Below the pieces are notes generated by a model. The model searched no databases, was not told the origin of the DNA, and saw only the letters and a list, made by a program, of their open reading frames with translations. A program made the translations under genes and the position numbers. Shown in pieces: positions 7,462 through 23,696 of a stretch of DNA of 64,000 nt. The DNA is taken from contig OZ245838.1 in assembly GCA_965228735.1 (NCBI GenBank), positions 7,072,001 to 7,136,000 of the forward strand, in the 5' to 3' direction. How positions within the stretch are numbered: the first letter of the stretch is position 1; each line of letters starts with the position of its first letter. The DNA comes from Planctomycetota bacterium (GTDB taxonomy: Bacteria > Planctomycetota > UBA1135 > UBA2386).

Positions 7462-9240
7462 TCAGCCGCCCCCATTCGAGCCAGCACCGTTCGAGCCAGC
7501 ACCGTTGGAGCCAGCACCGTTCGGGCCGGCGTTCTCGGTCCCGCCGTCGCTGGCGGCCGACGTGTCGTCCGTCGCCTCGTCGGTCTCCCCGGTCGCTTCC
7601 GCGTCGGGCAACATCGCGCCCGGCGGTCGCACGAGGTGGATCTCGTCGCCCTCTTCGATCCCGGCGGCGAGCGCGACGTGCGTCAGGTTGCTGCCGCCGA
7701 CCTCGACCGGGGTCGCGACCGGACCCTCGTCCGTCGCGAGCCACACGTAGTGCTGGTCGCGCCGGCGTTCGAGCGCCGGCAGCGGGATGTAGAGCACGTC
7801 CTCGAGATCGCCGACCTGGATGGTCACGCTCGCGTTCATCCCCGGCCGCACCGTGCCGTCCGAGTTGTCGCGGTCGAGCGCGACGTGCACCTTGTATTCC
7901 TTGACCTCGCGGCTGCGGCGGGTCGGCACGGGCAGCGTCGAGACCGACGCGACGTGCCCCTCGAAGATCTGGCCGGGGAATGCGTCCACCTTGATCGCCG
8001 CGGGCTGGCCGACGACGACCTTGTCGACCTGCGCCTCGTGCACGCGCAACTCCGCCGTCATCTTGCGGATGTCGGGCAGGATCACGATGTCCTGGCGCTC
8101 GCGGACCTCCATGCCCTCGTAGACCGGTTCGTCCCAGTCGTAGCGGCCGTAGACGACGAGCCCGGAGGACGGCGCGAGCATCACCGCGTGCTTCAGCTGC
8201 TCGTTCCAGTTGTCGAGGCGGTCCTTCGCGAGCTTGTATTCGGCCTCCGCGCTGATGAGCTCGGCCGATTGCTGCACCCGGCGGGCCTCGTTCGCGGCCT
8301 TGACGCTCTCGAGCCCGAGCCGCGCGTTGTCTTCCTCTTGCTTGAGGCCGATCAGCGTCTCGTGCAGCGTGAACTTGACGAGCAGCTGCAGGTTGTTGAG
8401 CGCGACCGTGACGCGGGAGCGGTTGCGCTTGTGGTTGATGCGGTCACGTTCGAGTTCGTTACGCGTGATGAACCCGTTCGCCGCGAGGTCCTTGCTGTGG
8501 TTGAACGTGTCCTGGGCGAGTGCGAAGTCGGCGCGGGCGAGGCTGATCTCGTCGATCTGCGTGAGCACCTGGTTGGCCATCTCGCCCATCTCGAGGTCGT
8601 AGGCCGTCTCGGACCCGAGAATCTCGGCGATGCGCGCGACGAGTTCGTCCGCGCTCCGCGCCGGCAACAGGTCCGTCATGCCCTCGACGGCGAACAGCGC
8701 CTCGAGTTCGTCGACCATCTGACGGTTGGTGCCCGCGTTCTCGTCCTCGTTCGGGCCGCGCGCGGCCTGCGACGTGCGGGCCTGGCCGAGGAACTTGCCG
8801 AGCTTGATGCGGGCGATCTTGAGCCGGCTCTCGGCGGTGCGTTCGGCCGCGAGCAGCTCCTTCTCCATCACCTCGTGGTTCTTGCGCGCCTGCTTCACCG
8901 CGGCGTCGGCCCGTGCGACGGCGATCGCCTGGCTGGCCTGCTTCTCCTCGATGAGGCTCGCGTCGAGCTCGGCGACCTTCTCGCCCGGCTCGACCACCGT
9001 GCCCTCCTCGATCAGGTAGATCAGCGTGTTGCGCCCCTCGAGGCGCGACACGACGCGCGTGTCGGATTGGGCCTCGATCTCCGCGCGTTCGCGCACGGTC
9101 ACGGGGAGCGTGCCGCGGGTCACGGTGTAGCGCAGTTGATCCGTCGCGGTGGACGTGTCATCGCACCCGGCGAACACGCCGACCAGGCAGGTGATGGCGA
9201 GCGCACGAGCCGGGGCTGCAATCGAAGCGGATTCGGTCAT
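7462..9240 (-). CDS. Efflux periplasmic adaptor (MacA/HlyD-like), lipoprotein
   Basis: VFAGC lipobox; EEGTVVEPGEKVAELD, long coiled region, APSSGLVVY, VHEAQVDKVVVGQ, RPGMNASVTI. Confidence 0.88.
   Translation of the reverse strand: MTESASIAAPARALAITCLVGVFAGCDDTSTATDQLRYTVTRGTLPVTVRERAEIEAQSDTRVVSRLEGRNTLIYLIEEGTVVEPGEKVAELDASLIEEKQASQAIAVARADAAVKQARKNHEVMEKELLAAERTAESRLKIARIKLGKFLGQARTSQAARGPNEDENAGTNRQMVDELEALFAVEGMTDLLPARSADELVARIAEILGSETAYDLEMGEMANQVLTQIDEISLARADFALAQDTFNHSKDLAANGFITRNELERDRINHKRNRSRVTVALNNLQLLVKFTLHETLIGLKQEEDNARLGLESVKAANEARRVQQSAELISAEAEYKLAKDRLDNWNEQLKHAVMLAPSSGLVVYGRYDWDEPVYEGMEVRERQDIVILPDIRKMTAELRVHEAQVDKVVVGQPAAIKVDAFPGQIFEGHVASVSTLPVPTRRSREVKEYKVHVALDRDNSDGTVRPGMNASVTIQVGDLEDVLYIPLPALERRRDQHYVWLATDEGPVATPVEVGGSNLTHVALAAGIEEGDEIHLVRPPGAMLPDAEATGETDEATDDTSAASDGGTENAGPNGAGSNGAGSNGAGSNGGG
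7471..7533. repeat. 15-bp tandem repeat encoding (NGAGS)n at the adaptor C-terminus
   Basis: CCGTT(C/G)GAGCCAGCA unit repeated about 3-4 times. Confidence 0.8.
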
Positions 9241-9421
9241 TCGGGGCCCAGGGAGTCTAGGCGAGGATCGCCGCGCGCGAACGCGGAGATGCGCGACCTC
9301 AAACCTGTTACATCATCGTCGGGGCCGTCGCATGGCGCTCGGATCCCCGCCGGTCAGTTGCCCGAACCGCGAGATCGTGCAACCTCACGGCGAGTCCGCG
9401 CGGAGTAGGCTCGTGCGGCCG

Positions 9422-12400
9422 ATGTCTCCCGAAGCCCTGTTTCGCCAGTATCGCGACTTCGGCGACGCCGAAGCGCTCGGGGCCGTGTTCGACCGCCTCG
9501 CGCCGGAGTTGGCGCTGATCGCGGCCCATCTCGTCGGCGCTGACGCAGCCGAAGACCTCGTGCAGGCGACGTTTCTCGATGCGATCGAGCAGCGTGATCG
9601 CTGGGATGGCAGTCGTCCGCTCGCGCCGTGGCTCGTCGGTCTGCTCGGGATGCACGTGCGGCGGGCCCGACGCGAACGCGGTCGGTGGCCCGACGCCGGG
9701 CGTCTCGGGGATCGCCGGTCGGACGTCGATGACCGCGACGGCCCGGCAGCAGCGGCGGTATCGCGGGACACGCTCGCGCTCGTCCGGCGCACGGTCGCGC
9801 AGCTGCCCTCGCACTACCGGACCGTATTGTCGCTGCGCCTCGTCGACGGACTCGAGGTGCAGGCCATCGCGCGCAGCCTCGGCGTGCCGCTCGGAACGGT
9901 GAAGGCGCGGCTGCATCGCGGTCTCGATCTCCTGCGACGGACACTGCCCGCGGGGGTCGCGGGAGCGGTGGCTGCGCTCGGGCTCGTCGAGCCCGCGCTC
10001 GGTGCGGTTCGGGCCGCCGTCGTCGATGCGGCGATGCGGCCTGGCGTCGGTGCCGGCGTCGGCGGCGCGGTCGGCACGGGCGTCGGGACATTGGCCGTGA
10101 CGGGAGCCTGGATCATGAAGCAGTGGATCATCGGGAGCGCGATCGTGCTCGTCGTGTTCGCGGGTTGGCTCGTCGTGCGGTCGGACGCGACGGAGCCGGG
10201 GCAAACCGAAGCCGGGTCAGCCAGTCCGGCCGGTGCTGCCACGGCGGCGCCCGGGGAGCGATCGTCGAACCCCGCGCCCGTCGCTGCGCCGGCCACCGTC
10301 GAACGTGCGATCGTGCCAGCCGCGACGCCACAGTCGCGACTGGGCGCGTTGCGCGTGGCCGTCGTGTGGCGTTCGGACGGTGCGCCGGTCGCCGGCGTGC
10401 AGGTCGAATTGTATCGGCACGGTCGGCGGCGTGCCGTCGACATCGCGCATAGCGCCGACGATGGGGTCGTGACCTTTGCGGACTTGCCGCCCGGTGACTA
10501 CCGGGCGAGCATCGTCGCGCTGCCGCATGCGCCGTGCGAGATTCGGATCGCAGCCGGGACCGCGATCGAACGCGAACTTCCGGTCGGCGGCGATGTGCGG
10601 CTGCGTGTTCTGGTCGCAACCGCGGACGGCGCGCCGTGGTCCGACGCGGCGGTGTGGGCCTACGATCACCTGGGTGGCCCCCTCGGCGGGCGACTGCTCG
10701 GGCGCACCGACGTCGCCGGGGTCCTCGAGTATCGCGGCCTGCCGCCCGCGTCCGTGTGGGCGCGTGCCGTCGGACGCATGCCGAGTCGACTCCACGCCCT
10801 GCCCTCGGACCTCGCGCGCGGGGCTCGGCCGTCGCCCACCGAAGTCCTGCTCGTTCTCGGTGGCTCGGGGGCCGCAGTGCATGGTGTCGTGACGGATCCC
10901 GACGGTCGGGTGGTCCCGGACGCGATCGTCGCGGTCGCCGTCGTGGACGAGTTCGGCGGCACGGACGATCCGCCCGAGGTCACGACGACGACGGACGCGG
11001 CCGGCCGCTTCGCGCTGTCGGAGCTGCCGGTCGGCGAGCGCAACATCGTCGCCACGGCGCCTGGGTTCGCGGCGATCGAGGCGCGGGTCGAGACGCTGGC
11101 CGACGAGGTCGCGTTCGTGCAGCTGCAGCTGCGGCGTGGTGCGAGCATCCGCGGTCGGGTGCGCGATGCCGGCGGCCGGCCGGTCCCGTCGTTGCCGGTC
11201 ACCGTGGGCACGGACGGCGGCGCCACCGGCATCCAGCGCCACGGAGGACGGTTGCGCACGACGCGGACCGACGAGGCCGGGGACTATCGGATCGACGGGA
11301 TCGTGCCGGGGAACGGCAGGGTGCTGGTGCATCTGCAGCCGGTCAGCAAGCGCGAGTTCGTGTTCGTCGATGGTGAGGCGTACGAGTTCGACGTGCAGCC
11401 GGCGCCCCGTGGCGCGATCACAGGCGTGCTCGTCGACGAGGACGGCGAACCGCTCGCGGGTTGGTCCGTGGGGGCCTCGAGTGGCAGGTTCGGCGCCGCC
11501 CCGTTCGCCACCGCCACCGATGCAGGCGGACGGTTCGAGCTCGCGGTTCCCGCCGGCCGAGCGTACGAGCTGCTCGTCTTCGCGCCGCGACAGGGCCACT
11601 GGACCCCGTTCTCGTCACGGCCCCGGCTCGCCGTGTCGGGGGTTTCTCCCGGGGGCGAGCCGATGCGGTTGGAGGTGCCGGACGCGGCGCTGGGCGATGC
11701 CGTCCTGCATGGCAGCGTCGCGCTCCCTGATGGCGAGGCGAGCCGCGCGTCGCTCGACCTGCGCGGGATCGTCGCGGGTAGTGCAGCCGTCGTGGTCGAT
11801 CGTGTCACGATCGCGGCGGGGGCGGCGCCGACGTTCCGATTCGAGCACCTGCCGCCGGGACGATACCGACTCGCGTGCGACTTCGGTGGCCGCGGTCGCA
11901 TCGTGCGTGACGACATCGTCGTGCGAGCGGGTGAGGAGCGCGAGCTCGGCCCGCTGGGCCTCGGGGGGCAAGTGCCGGTTCGCTTGCGGTTGCGGCGCCC
12001 CGACGGTGCACCGGTGACCGGCGCGAGCCTGCGGCTGGTGCCGGGTTGGATCGCGCTCACGGAGTCGCGCCCCGGAGAGTACGAATCTGCGCCGGTGCAG
12101 CTCGGGCGGTTCGAGGTTTCGGCGTTCGGGCCCGGGATCGCCCCGGCGAAGTGGACCATCGATGTCGGTGATGACACGCCGATCGATCACACGCTCGCAA
12201 CGGCGTCGACCGTCGAGTTCGTGATCTCGCCGCGGTCCGAGCGCAAGTCCTGGCGCGGAACGCTCGCGATCGAGCTGCGCGCGACCGGCCCGCGGCCGCT
12301 CGTCCAGGCGATCGTCACTTTGCCCGGTGACCCGATGTACTCGTGGTCGCTCGGGCTGCTGCCGGGCACGTACACGCTGAACGTGCGTGACAACCAGGGC

Positions 12401-12463
12401 AGCGTCGAGCGCACGGTGACCGTCGGCGCCGGCGCGCAGCGGTTCGACGTTCCGTTGCGCTGA
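9422..12463 (+). CDS. ECF sigma-70 factor fused to a membrane helix and carboxypeptidase-regulatory-like repeats
   Basis: Region 2 AEDLVQATFL...PWL; region 4 LPSHYRTVLSLR...IARSLGVPLGTVKARLHRG; TM WIIGSAIVLVVFAGWLVV; repeated G.V.D.DG.PV...TD..G.F...LP.G units. Confidence 0.88.
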   Translation: MSPEALFRQYRDFGDAEALGAVFDRLAPELALIAAHLVGADAAEDLVQATFLDAIEQRDRWDGSRPLAPWLVGLLGMHVRRARRERGRWPDAGRLGDRRSDVDDRDGPAAAAVSRDTLALVRRTVAQLPSHYRTVLSLRLVDGLEVQAIARSLGVPLGTVKARLHRGLDLLRRTLPAGVAGAVAALGLVEPALGAVRAAVVDAAMRPGVGAGVGGAVGTGVGTLAVTGAWIMKQWIIGSAIVLVVFAGWLVVRSDATEPGQTEAGSASPAGAATAAPGERSSNPAPVAAPATVERAIVPAATPQSRLGALRVAVVWRSDGAPVAGVQVELYRHGRRRAVDIAHSADDGVVTFADLPPGDYRASIVALPHAPCEIRIAAGTAIERELPVGGDVRLRVLVATADGAPWSDAAVWAYDHLGGPLGGRLLGRTDVAGVLEYRGLPPASVWARAVGRMPSRLHALPSDLARGARPSPTEVLLVLGGSGAAVHGVVTDPDGRVVPDAIVAVAVVDEFGGTDDPPEVTTTTDAAGRFALSELPVGERNIVATAPGFAAIEARVETLADEVAFVQLQLRRGASIRGRVRDAGGRPVPSLPVTVGTDGGATGIQRHGGRLRTTRTDEAGDYRIDGIVPGNGRVLVHLQPVSKREFVFVDGEAYEFDVQPAPRGAITGVLVDEDGEPLAGWSVGASSGRFGAAPFATATDAGGRFELAVPAGRAYELLVFAPRQGHWTPFSSRPRLAVSGVSPGGEPMRLEVPDAALGDAVLHGSVALPDGEASRASLDLRGIVAGSAAVVVDRVTIAAGAAPTFRFEHLPPGRYRLACDFGGRGRIVRDDIVVRAGEERELGPLGLGGQVPVRLRLRRPDGAPVTGASLRLVPGWIALTESRPGEYESAPVQLGRFEVSAFGPGIAPAKWTIDVGDDTPIDHTLATASTVEFVISPRSERKSWRGTLAIELRATGPRPLVQAIVTLPGDPMYSWSLGLLPGTYTLNVRDNQGSVERTVTVGAGAQRFDVPLR

Positions 12464-13792: not shown

Positions 13793-14884
13793 ATGCAACA
13801 CGCGCTTCTTTCCCTCGCCTCGGCGGGCGTTCTCGCCACTGCCGCGTTCGCCCAGTCCTCGACGGCTTGTCTGCCCATCGGCACCAACGGTGCGGTGGGC
13901 TGCCAGTCCGCGAGCGCTCCCGTCCTGACCGGCGGCGTGATCGCGACCGGTATTATCGACTTCGACTACAACCAGACGACCGCGATTCTCGAGGTTCGGG
14001 TCACCAACACCTCGCCGGTGCTGACCAACGCCAACAACCCGGTGATCACCGGGGTCGCGTTCAGCTTCCCGTTCAACACCGTCAACAACGCGACGCTCGT
14101 GTCGCAGACGGCGCTCGCCGGTGCGACGCCGAACTTCGGCATGCAGTTCACGTCCGGTCAGTTCCTGCTGCAGGGCTGCATGGGCTGCTTCAGCGTCGTC
14201 CTGACCGCGAACGGTCCGGGTGGCGGTATCGGCAATGATCTCGCGACGCAGTTCGCCAACCCGCCGGTCGTGCTCGGCCGCACGACGTTCCGGTTCCAGC
14301 TCAGCGGTCCGGGTGTCGGCACGCTCGATGCTGACGCGATCTCGTCGATGCTGTCCGGCGGTGGCACCTACAACGTCGCCTCGTCGTTCTTCTTCGAAGG
14401 CGGCGGTGCGAGCGGTTCCGAGAACGGCTATGTCTCGAGCGGCTTCCCGTGCTGCCCGAACAACGCGATGTTCCAGAGCGCCGGTACCGGTTGTGCGCCG
14501 TCGTTCCTCAGTGCCCCGACCGTCACGGGTGTCGGTCTGCCCTACGTCGGTGACGACGTGGTCGTCGACGTCAGCAGCCCCGCCACGCCGAACGCGCCGG
14601 GTCTCCTGATCCACGGCTTCTCGAACACGTTCGATCCGTTCTTCGGTGTGCAACTGCCGCTCGACCTGTCGATCTACGGCTTCCCGGGCTGCTCGCTCTA
14701 CCCGAGCAACGAGTTCGTGCTGCCGATCCTGACCGACGCCACCGGCAGCGCCGGCTACTCGGTCTCGATCCCCGGCTTCGGCAAGTGGTGCGGCCGCACG
14801 ATCACCTACCAGGCGTTCTTCGTGGCGCCGAACGGTGGTGCGATCCTGAGCTCCGACGGGCTCACGGCGACCCTCGGCAGCTGA
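13793..14884 (+). CDS. Secreted beta-rich protein with the shared terminal domain
   Basis: Signal peptide ending AFAQ; C-terminal GLPYVG...LPLDLSIYGFPGCSLY...IP...GRTITYQ...SSDGLTATLGS. Confidence 0.8.
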   Translation: MQHALLSLASAGVLATAAFAQSSTACLPIGTNGAVGCQSASAPVLTGGVIATGIIDFDYNQTTAILEVRVTNTSPVLTNANNPVITGVAFSFPFNTVNNATLVSQTALAGATPNFGMQFTSGQFLLQGCMGCFSVVLTANGPGGGIGNDLATQFANPPVVLGRTTFRFQLSGPGVGTLDADAISSMLSGGGTYNVASSFFFEGGGASGSENGYVSSGFPCCPNNAMFQSAGTGCAPSFLSAPTVTGVGLPYVGDDVVVDVSSPATPNAPGLLIHGFSNTFDPFFGVQLPLDLSIYGFPGCSLYPSNEFVLPILTDATGSAGYSVSIPGFGKWCGRTITYQAFFVAPNGGAILSSDGLTATLGS

Positions 14885-14977
14885 GCTGGCGAGCTGATCA
14901 GCGTTCGGCCCGCCACCCCGGCGGGCCGCCGACCGGCGGCTGTCGCGCTCTGCGGCAGCCGTTGCCGGGTATGGACG

Positions 14978-16198
14978 CTACTTCGCGGCGGTCTCGACGC
15001 GGCGCAGCGCGATCCCGAGCGGCTTCGGCCCCGGATCACGGTTGCGCTGGTTGAAGCGCCACGCACCGCGCCGTTCGCCGACGGCGACGAGCTCGAAGCT
15101 CTCGAAGTCGCCCGTCTTGCTGTGCCAGCGTGACCGGCCGTAGAGCGTGGCGCGGTAGCCTTGCTGGCCGGCGTCCATCACGGCCTCGCCGCGATACTCG
15201 ATCGTCCAGACCGAGCGCTCGACCGCCGTTCGTTGCATGGTCAGGGTCGCGGTCTCGATGTGCTGCTCGCGCCAATGCGGCGCCTGGCCGCGAACGTTGT
15301 CGACGAGCACCTCGCGATAGAGCCGTCGCACGACCTCGTCGTCGACCGGTCGGGGTTTCTTGCTCTTCGTCACGAACACCTTTGGGTCGTCGAACGCGAT
15401 CCAGTTGCGGTTCCAGGCCCACTTCACGAACTCGGTCCAGTTGCGGTCGTCGAAGCGGTTGCGCTGATATCGGCGCACGGACTCGGGGTCGTCCATGCTC
15501 GCGAGGTCGCGCAATGAAACGGCGAATGCGAGCGCCTTGCCCTCGATGTCGGGCGGCATCACCCGGTCGGCGACCGGCACGGGCGCGTTCTCGTAGCCGC
15601 GCCGCTGGCGCAGCTTCTGCCAGCGCTGCAGCGCCCGGCGCAGGCGCTCGCGCATGTCCTCGCGGTCACCGCCGGCTGCGAACCGCCCTTCGAGATACTC
15701 GGCGTCGGGGCCGATCATGTAGATGCCCTGTTTGGTTCCCGGGTGGTTCCAGTCACCTTCGGGCATCGACTCGCCGTACTTGCGGAAGAAGCGGTGGGTC
15801 GGATCGTTCGCGATCCGCTGCACGTGCTGCGGGTTCTCGGGGTAGAGCCCGTAGGCCTCGTCGGCGACGGTGACGAACTCTCGGCTGAGCTTCTGGATCT
15901 CCGGGTCTGACCAGACCAGTTGGCGTCCGCGGACGCCGTTGTTTCAAGTGCAGCCGAGCGGGTGGCCGTTCATCGTCCAGAGCAGGATCGGGCGACCGAG
16001 CTCTCTGGCCTCCGCGATCGCCGGGCCGAGCCGGTTGCGCCAGCCGACCTGCTGGAACGACAGCTCGAGCTCGTCGGGCTCGATGGCCTCGAGCCAGTCG
16101 TCGAGGTTCTTCGGTCCGAGGGTGGGCAGCTCGGTTTGCGCGATGCTCGGCGATGCCAACGCGAACGCCAGCGCCACTGGCGACAGTGCGATCCTCAT
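14978..16198 (-). CDS. Putative secreted thioredoxin-like selenoprotein (GCTU motif; UGA at 15944-15946, codon 85)
   Basis: Signal peptide; VGWRNRLGPAIAEARELGRPILLWTMNGHPLGCT-TGA-NNGVRGRQLVWSDPEIQKLSREFVTVADE continues a thioredoxin-like pattern in frame into the 14978..15823 ORF; hairpins follow the UGA. Alternative start at ATG 16210. Confidence 0.8.
15904..15937 (-). promoter_or_regulatory. Candidate bacterial SECIS hairpins after UGA 15944
   Basis: mRNA: UGA-AACAAC-GGCGUC(CGCG)GACGCC-AACU-GGUCU(GGUC)AGACC. Confidence 0.55.
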
Positions 16199-16215
16199 GC
16201 GCGTGACCATACCGC

Positions 16216-18101: not shown

Positions 18102-20261
18102 TCAGCCGGCGTTCTTGCGGCGCCGCGCCGGACGCTTGGGCGCGCGCCGTTGCGCATCGCGACTCGGAGGCTCGAGGTCGAACGGCTCGCCGTTCTGCGT
18201 GCGGCAGAGGATCCGCTGGTGCCCGTCGATCACCGCCGGCCGGAGCACCACGCCGCGGGTGCAGAGCTCCGCGACCTGTTGCCGCGTCAGCGTCAGGCCG
18301 CGGTAGACCTTGGGCAGGCGGAACTCGCAGTTCTCGCGCCATCGCGAGCACCCGTACGCCTTCTGGCCCTCGACGACCGGCGCCTGGCAGCGCGGGCAGT
18401 TGCCGAGCGAATTGCTCGCGACCGGGGCCAGGCCGCCGCCGACGATCTGCTCCGTGCTGCTCACGATCTCCGCCATGAACTCGTCGCGGGCGCGCTGTCC
18501 GCGTTCGATCTGACCGAGCTTGAACTCCCACTCACCGGTCAGCTCCGGTGACTTGAGAACGGGCGACGCGATGATCGCGACGAGGTAGCGGCCGAGGTCG
18601 GTGACGCGCAGCGCCTTCTTGTCGCGGCGGATGTAGCGGCGCGACAACAGCGTCTCGACGATCGCCGCGCGCGTTGCCGGGGTGCCGAGGCCGCGGCCGC
18701 GCATCGCCTCGCGCAGCTGCTCGTCGTCCACGAGTTTGCCCGACGTCTCCATCGCCGCGAGCAGCGTGTTCTCGGTGAACGGGCGCGGCGGCTTGGTCTT
18801 GCCCTCGTGCAGCTCCGGCTCGTGGGGGCCGCTCTCGCCCTCGGTGAGCTCCGGCAGCTCCTGGGCGTCGTCGTCGTCGTCCGCCGGCTTCTTCTTGCTG
18901 CTCTTCTTCTTCGCCGCCTTCTTCGCCGTCTTTTTATGGGCCTCCTTCGGCTCGAGCGCGCTCCAACCCGGGTCGGTGATGACCACCCCGCGCGCGCGGA
19001 ACGGCACGTCCGCGGCGACCGCGTGCGCCGTCGTCACGTCCTGCTGCTTGTCGCCGAGGAACACCTGCACGAGGCGCGTCGCGACCGCGTCGAACACCTG
19101 CTGCTGTTCACCGGACAGCGCTTGGATCGCCCCCGTCGGCACGATCGCGTGGTGGTCGCTGACCTTGTTGTCGTCGAACACGCGCCGTGGTGCTGCACGC
19201 GGGCCGCGCTCGCCCTCGGGCGCGCCGCCGATCCAGTCCGCGAGGAGCTGCATCGCCTCCGGGTTCCAGCCACGCAGCTTGCCGAGCGTCTGCCGCACCG
19301 GCTCGATCATGTCCTTGCTCAGATGGCGACTGTCCGTTCGGGGGTAGGTCAGCAGCTTCTTCTCGTAGAGCTCCTGCGCGACCTCGAGCGTGCGCGCCGC
19401 GGACATGCCGTGGCGCTGGTTCATGTCGCGCTGCAGCTGCGTGAGGTCGTAGAGCAGCGGCGGCGGCTGCGACTCGCTCTTCTTCTCGATCTTCTGGATC
19501 GTGAGGGGCTCGCCCTCGACCTTCTGCAGCAGCTCGGCGGCCGGCTCCTGCTCGCGGAACCGGTCACCGGTGAACTTGAAGCGCGCCGCGCGATACTTCG
19601 TGCGCAGCTCCCAGAACGGCCGCGGATCGAACACCCGGATCTCGTCGTCGCGCTGCGCGATCATCGCGAGCACCGGGGTCTGCACGCGGCCGAGGCTCCA
19701 CAGCACGCTGCCGCCGCCGAACTTCACCGTGTAGGCTCGCGTCGCGTTGAGGCCGACGATCCAGTCGGCCTCGCTGCGGCTGCGCGCCGCGCTGTGCAGG
19801 TGCTCGTACTCGCGGCCCGACTTGCGCGACTCGAGCGCCTTCTTGATCGCCGTCTCGGTCAACGAGCTGAGCCACAGCCGCGTGTGCTCGCGTTCGGGGC
19901 AGCCCGCGTACTCGAGGATGTAGCGGAAGATGAGCTCGCCCTCGCGGCCCGCGTCCGTCGCGCACACGAGCTCGTCGGCGGTGCGGCAGAGCTCGGCGAC
20001 GATGTCGAGCTGCTCCTTGCGGCCGCTCGCGTCGGTCGGCTTGAGCTCGAAGCGCTGCGGCACGAACGGCAGCCGTTCGAGCGACCAACGCTTCAACGCC
20101 GGGTCGTACTCGTCGGGCGACTTGAGCGTCGCGAGGTGGCCGAGCGCCCAGGTGACGCGCCAGCCATTGCCCTCGAGGTAGCCGTCGCGGCGCTGGTTGG
20201 CCCCGAGGACCTTGGCGAGGTCCCTGGCAACCGACGGTTTCTCGGCCACGACGACGTTCAC
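18102..20261 (-). CDS. topB: DNA topoisomerase III
   Basis: VAEKPSVA, ATDAGREGELIF, SLGRVQTP, LTYPRTDS (active Tyr), DHHAIVPT, GLGTPATRA, C-terminal Zn ribbon. Confidence 0.95.
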   Translation of the reverse strand: MNVVVAEKPSVARDLAKVLGANQRRDGYLEGNGWRVTWALGHLATLKSPDEYDPALKRWSLERLPFVPQRFELKPTDASGRKEQLDIVAELCRTADELVCATDAGREGELIFRYILEYAGCPEREHTRLWLSSLTETAIKKALESRKSGREYEHLHSAARSRSEADWIVGLNATRAYTVKFGGGSVLWSLGRVQTPVLAMIAQRDDEIRVFDPRPFWELRTKYRAARFKFTGDRFREQEPAAELLQKVEGEPLTIQKIEKKSESQPPPLLYDLTQLQRDMNQRHGMSAARTLEVAQELYEKKLLTYPRTDSRHLSKDMIEPVRQTLGKLRGWNPEAMQLLADWIGGAPEGERGPRAAPRRVFDDNKVSDHHAIVPTGAIQALSGEQQQVFDAVATRLVQVFLGDKQQDVTTAHAVAADVPFRARGVVITDPGWSALEPKEAHKKTAKKAAKKKSSKKKPADDDDDAQELPELTEGESGPHEPELHEGKTKPPRPFTENTLLAAMETSGKLVDDEQLREAMRGRGLGTPATRAAIVETLLSRRYIRRDKKALRVTDLGRYLVAIIASPVLKSPELTGEWEFKLGQIERGQRARDEFMAEIVSSTEQIVGGGLAPVASNSLGNCPRCQAPVVEGQKAYGCSRWRENCEFRLPKVYRGLTLTRQQVAELCTRGVVLRPAVIDGHQRILCRTQNGEPFDLEPPSRDAQRRAPKRPARRRKNAG

Positions 20262-20324: not shown

Positions 20325-23300
20325 TTACCGCACGACGAAGTCGCGTTCGATCTCGGTGCGGCTCGCCGGGATCGTGAGAGGTTGATCACGCAGCGGCTGA
20401 CCCATGCCACGTGAGATCGCGATCGTGTAGCTCGGGCCGCGGGTCAGCACGATGCGAAAGCGGCCGTCCTTGCCCGTGCTCTGCCAGCCGCTCACGGGGT
20501 GGAGTTCGAGCGTGCCGCCGTGCTGCGGCACGTGCGTTCGGCCGCCGACGATCGCGCTGCCGACCGGCTTCTTGGCATTGTCGATCGTGCGACCCGTGAC
20601 CGTGACCTCCTCGCGACCGACGTAGCGGCCGTCGCGGAACGGCACGAGGTCGATTCGCACCGGCGTCGGATCCCGGCTCGGCAGCGCATCGCAGCGGAAC
20701 CTTTGTTTTTCGAACGGATTCCGCACATGCACGTACCGAGCGTTCGGGTCGGCGTGGAACGTGAGCGCCTGTTCGCGGGCGTCGAGGCCCTCGGCGCGGA
20801 AGCGCCCCTCGGCATCCGTGCGCACGCTGACGGTCGTGCCGTCCTGCCCTTGCCCATTCACGTAGACCCGCCCGTTCGCCAGCGGCTCGCCCGCGACGGT
20901 TACGACGCCCGCTACGGCGAGTCCGGTCCAGCGCAGCGTGAAGACGTATCCCGGCTGCGCGTCCTTCGGCAGCTGCAGTGACCAGCGGCGGCCGTCCGGC
21001 GCGGTCACGTACAGGTAGGCCTCCGGCACGAGATCCAAGGGCACGCTGCCGTCCGCCCCGACGTCGACCGGCTCGTGATCGGGAAGCTGCGCCGCGGACG
21101 CGCGGGCGCGGAAGCCCTGGAACCCGCCATCGGGCCCTTCGCCGGCGAACGCGAGGAACGGGCGGATCGTCGGGTTGGCGGGAATCCGCAGTTCAACGAC
21201 AGGTCGTTCGCCGGCCGCGGCTTCGATGGTCTCGACGATCGCACCGACCCACGAGTGCTCGGCTGCCTGCCGCGGCGCAAAGACCTTGAGCTGGCCCGGG
21301 GCGAACGGGCCGAGTACGGCCTTGCCGGTGGCGTCGGTGCGGGCGCGCCGCTGCTGATGATCGACGGTTCCGATGGCGACGTTGTGATCGGCGCGCGGCT
21401 TGCCGTCCGGGCCGACGACGTGGACCTCGACGTGCACGGCGCCCGCGAGGTCGATCACGCGGTCGTCGTCGTCAGCCGCCACCGCTACCGCGAACTGCGC
21501 TTCGCAGAGCTCGCCGACGAACACCTCGCACAGGTAGTTGCCGGCCGGCGCCGTGAGCTCGAACTGGCCCTCGCTCGTCGTAGTCGCCGCGTCGATCACG
21601 CACTCGGTGTTGTGCTGCCAGTTGAGCTGATTGAACGGGCGCAGCTGCACGTTGGCGCCGGCTACCGGGTCCGTTCCACGCACGACGCGGCCCGCGAAAC
21701 GGGCCGGCGCGCCGGGTTCGAGCTGGACCTCGTGCGGCTGCAGGTCGGCGCCGAAGAGCTCGATGCGTTGCAGGACCGCCGGCCGATACCCGTCGGCCCA
21801 CACCGTGACATCGAGCTGACTCGGAAACACACCGCGATGCTCCCGCGGCATCTCGAGCACCTGCTGCGCCCGGAACGGCGCGAGCGCGAACCAGCCGTCC
21901 TCGGCGTGGAACGTGCCGGTGTGTCGCGGCGTGCCGTTGTCGTCCGCCGAACGGATTCGGATCGTCTCGATCGGTCGCCCGGTCGCCTTGTCCGTGACAT
22001 GGATCCGCGCCCCGCCCCAACGCGTCACGTGCACGGTGCCCGCCTCGTCGGTCGACAGGCTCGTCGACGTGATCCAGCGTTGCCCGTTCTGCTTGATGAT
22101 GTTGCGGGTCACGGTCCACCCCGGCGTGAGGCACGTGACGCTGACGCTCGTTGCGCCGACCCGCGCCGTGAAGCGGCCCTTGCCGTCGGTCTCCGTGAAC
22201 CACTGGCCGCCCTCGCCTTCGAGTCGGAGCCGCAGCGGTTCGGGGACCAGTTGTTCGTGGTCGGTGAGCACGAACCCGACGAGCTCGCGCACGGGCCACA
22301 GGCTGATCGTGAGGGCCGCGTTCGTCGCGCCGTCCGTGCTCGTGGTCGAGCGGACCACGCCGAACCGCGGGCCAGAGGTTGGGTCACCCTCGAACGCGAA
22401 CCGGCGCGGCGCGCGGCCGTCGGCGCGGGCCTCGACCACGACGCCGGTCAGGGGGACCGGCAGTGCGCAGCGGCCGTCCGAGTCGGTCGTGCGGCGCAGC
22501 AGCGCTGGCTTGGTCTCGTCCCGAGGCGGCACGAGGAACGGGTGCTCGGCGCCGCGCAGCGTGACGTCGAGGGGCAGGTCCCGTGGGATGCGAACGGATT
22601 CGCCGAGGTCGTGGGGGATGCCGGTCGCACCCATCTGCGTGGTGCCGGCGAGCTCGCGCTGCAGCTCGAGCAGCGTGAGCTCGCGGGGGCCGAACAGCGC
22701 GAGGTCGGCGCCTTCGATCGGCTGTCTCGTCACGCCGTCGATCACCTGCACGTCGAGAGTCCAGGCCGCTTCGACGACGGCATCGACGACGGGGGCGGCG
22801 ACGCGCTCGGCGGCCGCGGGTGTCACGTTCCGGTCGCTGGCGCGCTTCGGCGTCGACGGCTCGACGGACGCCGGGGTGGGGGCGGGTGCCGCTACGTGAT
22901 CGGTCCGTGGCGTGTCGCTCTCGCCCGGCCACCAGGCCACGCCGAGAACGGTCACGCAGACGGCGACGAGCGCTGTGAGAACGACGGTTTGCTTGCTCAT
23001 GACGATTCCCAGAACGGTGATGCCGGCGCCCGTTGCGGCGACGGCGCCCGCGGCCGCCTTGGCCGCGGTGAGGCGCGCGCCGGCGGCGATGACCTCGGTG
23101 CGGATCGCGGCGAGCCCGCGCGTCGCGGTCATCGCGGTCGCGGCGAGGGCGGTGGCGAGTCCCGCCGGCAGCGCGCGCCGCGCCATCTCGAGGCCGCGGT
23201 GGATCTGCGAGCGCACGGTCGCCGGGCTGCGGTCGAGGACGAGCGCGATCTCGGCCGGCTCCATGCCGTGCACGAGGCGCAGCAGGGTCGGCTCGCGGAA

Positions 23301-23696
23301 CGGTTCGCGCAGGCGTTCGATCGCGTTGCGGGCCGTGTCCGACAGTTCGCGGTCCGCGACGCCGTCGGCCGGCTGCGGCTCAGTGCCCGAGACCTGATCG
23401 CCGTCCGCGCCGAGGTCGGGCGAGCGTCGACTGCGGCGACGCTCGCTCTTGGCCCGGTTGGTCAGGATCCCGGCAAGCCACGGCGTGACGGACCGCTTGC
23501 CCTCGAAGCGGTCGGCGCTCTCGATGGCGGCGAGGAACGTGTCCTGCAGCAGATCTTCGGCGGCGGCGACGTCGCGGGTCAGGTGCGACGCGAGGCGCAG
23601 CAGCTCCGGCGCGACCCGGTCGAACAGCTTCGCGAGGGCGTCGACCTGATCGCGGTCGCGCCAGCGCAGAAACAGTCGGGTCGCTCGGTCTCGCAT
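20325..23696 (-). CDS. ECF sigma-70 factor fused to a membrane helix and carboxypeptidase-regulatory-like repeats
   Basis: AEDLLQDTFL...PWLAGIL; LREPFRE...EIALVLDRSPATVRSQIHRG; TM VVLTALVAVCVTVLGVAWW; repeated beta-sandwich units. Confidence 0.88.
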   Translation of the reverse strand: MRDRATRLFLRWRDRDQVDALAKLFDRVAPELLRLASHLTRDVAAAEDLLQDTFLAAIESADRFEGKRSVTPWLAGILTNRAKSERRRSRRSPDLGADGDQVSGTEPQPADGVADRELSDTARNAIERLREPFREPTLLRLVHGMEPAEIALVLDRSPATVRSQIHRGLEMARRALPAGLATALAATAMTATRGLAAIRTEVIAAGARLTAAKAAAGAVAATGAGITVLGIVMSKQTVVLTALVAVCVTVLGVAWWPGESDTPRTDHVAAPAPTPASVEPSTPKRASDRNVTPAAAERVAAPVVDAVVEAAWTLDVQVIDGVTRQPIEGADLALFGPRELTLLELQRELAGTTQMGATGIPHDLGESVRIPRDLPLDVTLRGAEHPFLVPPRDETKPALLRRTTDSDGRCALPVPLTGVVVEARADGRAPRRFAFEGDPTSGPRFGVVRSTTSTDGATNAALTISLWPVRELVGFVLTDHEQLVPEPLRLRLEGEGGQWFTETDGKGRFTARVGATSVSVTCLTPGWTVTRNIIKQNGQRWITSTSLSTDEAGTVHVTRWGGARIHVTDKATGRPIETIRIRSADDNGTPRHTGTFHAEDGWFALAPFRAQQVLEMPREHRGVFPSQLDVTVWADGYRPAVLQRIELFGADLQPHEVQLEPGAPARFAGRVVRGTDPVAGANVQLRPFNQLNWQHNTECVIDAATTTSEGQFELTAPAGNYLCEVFVGELCEAQFAVAVAADDDDRVIDLAGAVHVEVHVVGPDGKPRADHNVAIGTVDHQQRRARTDATGKAVLGPFAPGQLKVFAPRQAAEHSWVGAIVETIEAAAGERPVVELRIPANPTIRPFLAFAGEGPDGGFQGFRARASAAQLPDHEPVDVGADGSVPLDLVPEAYLYVTAPDGRRWSLQLPKDAQPGYVFTLRWTGLAVAGVVTVAGEPLANGRVYVNGQGQDGTTVSVRTDAEGRFRAEGLDAREQALTFHADPNARYVHVRNPFEKQRFRCDALPSRDPTPVRIDLVPFRDGRYVGREEVTVTGRTIDNAKKPVGSAIVGGRTHVPQHGGTLELHPVSGWQSTGKDGRFRIVLTRGPSYTIAISRGMGQPLRDQPLTIPASRTEIERDFVVR

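Follow-up and report, generated by a model that had tools for sequence, protein, structure and literature searches.

The window analysed here (the whole stretch of 64,000 nucleotides) carries on its minus strand a frame of 406 codons interrupted by one in-frame TGA, codon 85 (15946-15944), within the sequence N-G-H-P-L-G-C-T-U-N-N-G. That the frame runs on through this TGA, as the original prediction held without naming the strand, is borne out by translation from 16198 to 14978; the ORF list contains only the downstream piece (14978-15823, 281 aa) and not the two pieces reported. An in-frame ATG is also located at 16210. Contigs of four public runs show no variant letters or indels over 14978-16198, and none was found among them that spans the TGA with 31 letters on either side, since the paralogues have 37 nt over the TGA in common.

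Both topB and a PMT/GT-C glycosyltransferase gene precede the Sec gene at short distances and in the same orientation, so that the proposed co-transcription is possible. A functional tie did not hold up, since neither gene occurs at any of 40 homologue loci (mostly with 1.5 kb flanks, beyond which topB would often fall), and this neighbourhood is not conserved. No recurring Pfam theme was detected in 67 neighbour ORFs (65 of 93 from the homologue loci and 2 from the window), and the neighbouring genes of these loci and of the window name no substrate. In one family-level group (L033, L034, L039, L041, L044 and L047) a conserved co-oriented gene lies upstream, anti-sigma-factor-like by eye and with no Pfam match. 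Elsewhere in the window, ECF-type sigma factors fused to long C-terminal carboxypeptidase-regulatory-like domains are encoded at 9149-12463 and 20325-23696, and a GC-rich inverted repeat (about 14905-14930), possibly a shared terminator, separates the Sec gene from the converging gene at 13793-14884.

Features of the predicted selenoprotein gene, its neighbours and related genes of the same genome (window positions, or genome positions with the prefix G000:C1)
Feature	Position	Strand	Remark
Full coding sequence, 406 aa with Sec at 85	14978..16198	-	translation of window stretch
Predicted signal peptide, residues 1-20	16139..16198	-	hydrophobic from residue 3, ends S-I-A
Thioredoxin-fold domain, residues 46-200	15599..16063	-	DsbD-gamma / AGR / DUF255 type
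Cys83, candidate resolving Cys	15950..15952	-	in 29/34 TGA-bearing homologues
In-frame TGA, inferred selenocysteine U85	15944..15946	-	just before helix 86-95, first-Cys position of CxxC
Hairpin 1 after UGA, 6 bp, loop CGCG	15922..15937	-	predicted fold
Hairpin 2, candidate SECIS, 5 bp, GGUC loop 32-35 nt after UGA	15904..15917	-	rare Ser codon TCA closes stem
C-terminal beta-sheet domain, residues 212-401	14996..15565	-	weak colinear likeness to N-terminal luminal domain of selenoprotein N
Stop codon TAG of Sec gene	14980-14978	-	
PMT/GT-C glycosyltransferase gene, upstream of Sec gene	ending 16216	-	
topB, upstream of Sec gene	18102-20261	-	
Paralogue with TGA at same codon	G000:C1:6929363-6930454		this genome
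Paralogue with TGA at same codon	G000:C1:3484450-3485616		this genome
Paralogue with TGA at same codon	G000:C1:4854793-4855836		this genome
Thioredoxin-type TGA gene, motif D-D-E-F-C-U	G000:C1:2546133	+	
Thioredoxin-type TGA gene, motif G-F-A-U	G000:C1:5497244	+	
Thioredoxin-type TGA gene, motif G-M-W-U	G000:C1:3235828	+	
Thioredoxin-type TGA gene, motif V-P-G-U	G000:C1:6694360	-	

The AlphaFold model (pLDDT 92) divides the protein into the thioredoxin domain and the beta-sheet domain. Export, as first claimed, agrees with the predicted N-terminal signal, a segment of low pLDDT with a hydropathy of 2.17 over 11 residues (best value elsewhere 0.58) and a cleavage site placed by eye; by hydropathy over the protein, no other membrane-spanning stretch is seen. 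The thioredoxin-like fold is likewise confirmed by its best fold matches, which are of the DsbD-gamma, AGR and DUF255 types, and by the redox residue starting the helix after the first core strand. At 2266 and 62754, where the same fold pattern had been noted, only distant thioredoxin-like sequences outside the family are found (14.1 and 10.5 bits against the family thioredoxin profile). The beta domain has conserved polar motifs of its own (R230-D231, D300-N-V-R-G304, R376, N383 and R385), and no clear PDB match for it was found. Neither this second domain nor a relation to selenoprotein N had been part of the original prediction.

Conservation of the TGA was followed in an alignment of 37 genes, made up of the window gene, three paralogues, two verrucomicrobial loci, 28 TGA genes from the best loci of the phylum and three others chosen for the absence of a stop. 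Codon 85 is TGA in 34 of them, TGT in one (L052) and a Ser codon in two, with conserved residues on both sides, and the 34 interrupted genes never have TAA or TAG at this site. The N-N-G that follows the TGA is conserved and includes no start codon. Four full copies, the window gene included, are present in this genome, all with TGA at the same site and all with the rare Thr codon ACT (2.4% of Thr codons) just before it. Some of these copies share 37 nearly identical nucleotides over the TGA, enough to break assemblies. A homologue at L030:1435-2610 has a second in-frame TGA where its relatives carry Trp, through either an error or a nonsense change.

The 120 matches listed in a protein search span 64-78% of the query and have lengths of 261-332 aa, as expected for post-TGA pieces. 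A profile search recovered 3,608 clusters at 50% identity (E 0.001); among the best 150 representatives, 132 start after the Sec position, presumably because of a TGA, and 18 cross the junction. The Cys-containing homologues that had been anticipated, with G-C-T-C, do exist: the Sec position is occupied by Cys in six of these 18 uninterrupted representatives (four as C-x-C) and by another residue in 12, indicating that the module is also retained without catalysis. In a tandem pair of one genome (L050:1423-4444, G221), the first copy has Sec and the second is uninterrupted, having lost Cys and Sec from the active-site loop.

The genome (7.19 Mb, 69% GC) possesses selA, selB, selC and selD: it encodes tRNA-Sec, its selA, selB and selD score above curated cut-offs, and selD carries an in-frame TGA itself. 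Because the frame is open, the TGA conserved and the Sec machinery present, and because uninterrupted and Cys-bearing homologues exist, we deduce from these sequences that the locus is almost certainly one gene whose internal TGA is read as selenocysteine. Family matches occur in 91 of 301 sampled genomes of the phylum. A strong selA match is found in 89 of these 91 compared with 132 of the 210 others, in a sample whose related genomes are not independent. One of the two exceptions (G142, 86% complete) also lacks selB and has a family copy with no TGA, and the other (G148) has selB. The names on protein matches are mostly Planctomycetes, together with Fimbriimonadaceae and Chthonomonas, and two full loci come from Verrucomicrobiales and Akkermansiaceae. 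Four further exported thioredoxin-type genes of this genome have an in-frame TGA at the first-Cys position and a hairpin after each UGA.

The two hairpins predicted after the UGA are both found. The GGUC loop claimed for one of them is the predicted fold of hairpin 2 in a 77-nt folding window only, and the best fold in 60- and 100-nt windows has a UCAGAC loop instead; the form with GGUC is the version retained in close homologues. Folding energy is unremarkable (z -1.96 for 60 nt and -0.37 for 100 nt), a synonymous-shuffle test of hairpin energy gives a weak signal (mean z -0.46 versus -0.14 in control windows), and covariation is slight or absent, with one double-sided change in the GGUC stem (in L018). 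Hairpins were compared among 32 TGA genes, two with a local deletion being left out. Eleven of these are query-type genes (the query, its eight closest matches, L017 and L018), which have a common insertion after residue 118. Two mutually exclusive arrangements were observed. Hairpin 1 is complete in seven of the 11 query-type genes and in none of the 21 others; the GGUC hairpin is complete in ten of the 11, and the same ten use TCA for Ser97, a codon that accounts for 6 of 173 Ser codons elsewhere in query-type genes. In the other 21 genes a hairpin is positioned 9 nt closer to the UGA, with at least five of six pairs in 15 of them, and it uses AGA in 10 of the 21 compared with 14 of 854 Arg codons elsewhere in these genes. 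Two exclusive hairpins, each with a rare codon, suggest that the SECIS position has apparently shifted by 9 nt between subgroups, and the GGUC hairpin is likely the SECIS of the query gene, judging from these comparisons. For the four other thioredoxin-type TGA genes and selD of this genome, the hairpin loop lies about 20-30 nt after the UGA. Through the apparent shift, the range of SECIS positions that SelB accepts can be tested directly.

The active site differs from what was first assumed. In alignment, U85 takes the place of the attacking Cys, the first of CxxC, as does the Sec of the V-P-G-U gene of this genome, and Gly88 occupies the second position, where Gly is found in 34 of 37 rows and Cys never. 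Cys83 is exchanged for E, Q, N or V in five of 34 TGA rows, one of the three paralogues having Gln. Since Cys83 is optional and U85 is at the first-Cys position, the C-x-U is not a shortened CxxC, and its reading as a redox pair by spacing is not upheld. Moreover, the Pro that DUF255 and SELENON rows show in the loop preceding the last strands is replaced by Q157-G158 in the family (read by eye), a departure from the textbook disulfide reductase.

Taken as a whole, these data are explained fairly well by a predicted exported, two-domain, Sec-dependent envelope reductase made from one TGA-spanning gene, and we consider this account probable. SelB would bind a post-UGA hairpin, likely the one with the GGUC loop, and deliver Sec-tRNA, after which the signal peptide would direct export from the cytoplasm. 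The fold, the Sec register and the conservation point to the following reductase steps. The substrate would dock where the two domains meet, on the polar conserved surface of the beta domain, and its oxidised cysteine (disulfide or sulfenic acid) would be attacked by U85, a selenolate at the beginning of the active-site helix. In members that have it, Cys83 may resolve the intermediate as a C-x-U selenenylsulfide, and a membrane carrier of the DsbD/CcdA type might re-reduce the protein; a DsbD-type transmembrane domain is encoded in this genome. An envelope reductase role that depends on Sec is assigned as probable, with appreciable doubt.

Some homologues are built as parts of larger proteins. 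In four of the 18 uninterrupted representatives (P0124, P0208, P0222 and P0244) the two-domain module follows a Ser/Thr kinase and a transmembrane helix and forms the outer domain of a membrane kinase, with G-C-T-C in one and degenerate sites in three. Other fusions are to EF-hands (P0177) and to a PQQ-type propeller, and P0157 is also among the fused representatives. The selenoprotein may therefore act mainly as a redox- or ligand-sensing module of the envelope, with U85 as a switch and not a turnover enzyme, as the kinase and EF-hand fusions, the loss of Cys/Sec in 12 of the 18, and the description of SELENON as a sensor (available sections of PMC12839072) would fit. However, the product of the window gene is an unfused module with a signal peptide, no signalling partner is encoded beside it, and the costly Sec codon kept by most members (34 of 37 aligned) favours catalysis, so that this seems unlikely.

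Even less probable, in our estimate, is a Sec enzyme that acts on a small molecule (peroxide, halogenated compound or sulfur compound) in a peroxidase- or deiodinase-like way and not on protein disulfides. Such chemistry would accord with the missing second Cys of CxxC, the optional Cys83, the conserved polar residues N77, H79, N87, R92, E114 and Q157, and the Gln that replaces the usual Pro loop; deiodinases also have a C-T-U motif. Yet no Pfam or NCBIfam peroxidase or deiodinase model matches any of the 37 members at E 0.1, and GPx entries appear among the fold matches at E 0.035-0.07, behind the DsbD-gamma, AGR and DUF255 types. It is very improbable that the TGA is a true stop between two genes, that the locus is a pseudogene or that another amino acid is inserted at the TGA, for the split made everywhere by gene callers and the unremarkable hairpin energy are outweighed by a stop invariably of the TGA type that would cut the thioredoxin fold at its active site, by the conserved N-N-G lacking a start, by the uninterrupted and Cys forms and by the tRNA-Sec.

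The putative envelope reductase appears to be related to selenoprotein N (SELENON/SEPN1), which it resembles in the region of the active-site motif. With an uninterrupted homologue as query, the ESM Atlas returned a 'Selenoprotein N' cluster first (0.91, 198/256 features), tied with two Planctomycetota clusters; with the C-domain alone this cluster was not the first match. The thioredoxin domains of the family and of SELENON align with E 6.9e-8 in hhalign (probability 94.6, 128 columns; E 1.7e-5 with a shallower set). For the beta domains, 213 family C-domains against 29 SELENON N-terminal domains give a weak colinear alignment over about 100-145 columns (score 28.0, E 1.1e-3). The score is 29.6 (E 5.7e-4) against the 19 bacterial SELENON rows and 16.0, not significant, against the ten eukaryotic rows alone. 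Controls remained lower: at most 17.3 in 30 column shuffles, 21.3 in 30 block shuffles, 13.6 when reversed, and 20.8 and 19.7 with 65 natural decoy profiles, which were shallower than the test profiles. Searched with a SELENON beta-domain HMM, a set of 5,433 background ORFs and 213 family domains had family domains in 17 of the 22 top places and no individually significant match, and in the reverse search SELENON rows appear only from place 63. The likeness of the beta domains is below database-search significance. Accordingly, the link of the thioredoxin domains is solid and that of the beta domains moderate.

SELENON itself is also found in bacteria. A motif scan of metagenomes gave 71 loci; about ten of them are nearly complete SELENON frames of eukaryotes, and L119 is an orthologue from a bacterium. 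Direct bacterial orthologues with the animal domain order (L119:1170-2396, L134-L139, L142 and P0271-P0284) occur in 8 of the 301 phylum genomes, and eukaryotic rows are nested within this bacterial set in a thioredoxin-domain tree rooted at its midpoint, with a bootstrap that has not settled. A thesis reportedly describes a SELENON orthologue of Poribacteria; it concerns direct orthologues and not the two-domain C-T-U family. In the thioredoxin-domain tree, where the bootstrap has not settled, the family and SELENON fall on separate sides of branches (96/97 and 92/92). Against the thioredoxin profile of SELENON, the D-D-E-F-C-U and G-F-A-U genes of this genome score higher than the family (35 and 16 bits, versus 11). 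That the window gene is a SELENON orthologue is ruled out by the reversed domain order, the C-T-U-N motif and its place outside the SELENON clade. Instead, both of its domains are probably, if by no means surely, homologous to those of SELENON in the opposite order, and we lean slightly towards the family being a domain-swapped (circularly permuted) homologue of the whole SELENON luminal core.

If the two-domain tie is true, a human myopathy protein could be studied, as to both its chemistry and its substrate, through a soluble bacterial protein with natural Cys variants; no solved structure of a relative was found in this analysis. If the family is indeed domain-swapped, it would provide, through thousands of soluble members along with Cys-bearing, inactive and kinase-fused forms, the largest natural set in which to test what the catalytic core of SELENON binds and reduces, and the origin of that core would be placed in planctomycete-type bacteria. 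Apart from SELENON, a large missing family, carried by nearly a third of the sampled phylum genomes, is added to the bacterial selenoproteome.

Compared with known systems, this is very likely a real hidden selenoprotein gene of a large family that is uncatalogued with respect to Table 1 of PMC13188914 (2026). Its absence from that catalogue of 119 families follows from gene callers splitting the gene in two. The thioredoxin-fold selenoproteins of bacteria in this table (VPGUxxT NF041383, Trx7/PDZ NF041199, TsoX, TsoC, Sec.1 CxU and deiodinase-like) share with the family the in-frame UGA, the downstream hairpin and Sec in a thioredoxin fold, but the C-T-U-N-N-G motif, the two-domain build and a SELENON-like family are not among its entries. 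No description of the family was found in the literature covered, which included passages of PMC13326102 (BSepDB). No Pfam or NCBIfam model scores over its curated cut-off for the family, and no NCBIfam model matches any of the 37 aligned members. The exported Thioredoxin_7, DsbD-gamma, DUF255 (Thioredox_DsbH) and AGR folds are among the closest known types, yet they remain below curated cut-offs, and this protein differs from them in having no CxxC, a longer loop before the active site and an extra domain of 190 residues. Like SELENON, whose S-C-U-G active-site motif and topology are given in the available sections of PMC12839072, the protein is predicted to be extracytoplasmic, and its Sec stands where the first Cys would be, with Gly three residues later (U-x-x-G) and a Cys shortly ahead of it. 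The two differ in that the thioredoxin domain comes first here and the beta domain first in SELENON, and in their motifs, C-T-U-N-N-G as opposed to S-C-U-G-S-G. Moreover, the family member described here has a candidate in-frame SECIS of the bacterial kind and a cleavable-type signal, and it lacks the membrane anchor and EF-hand of animal SELENON.
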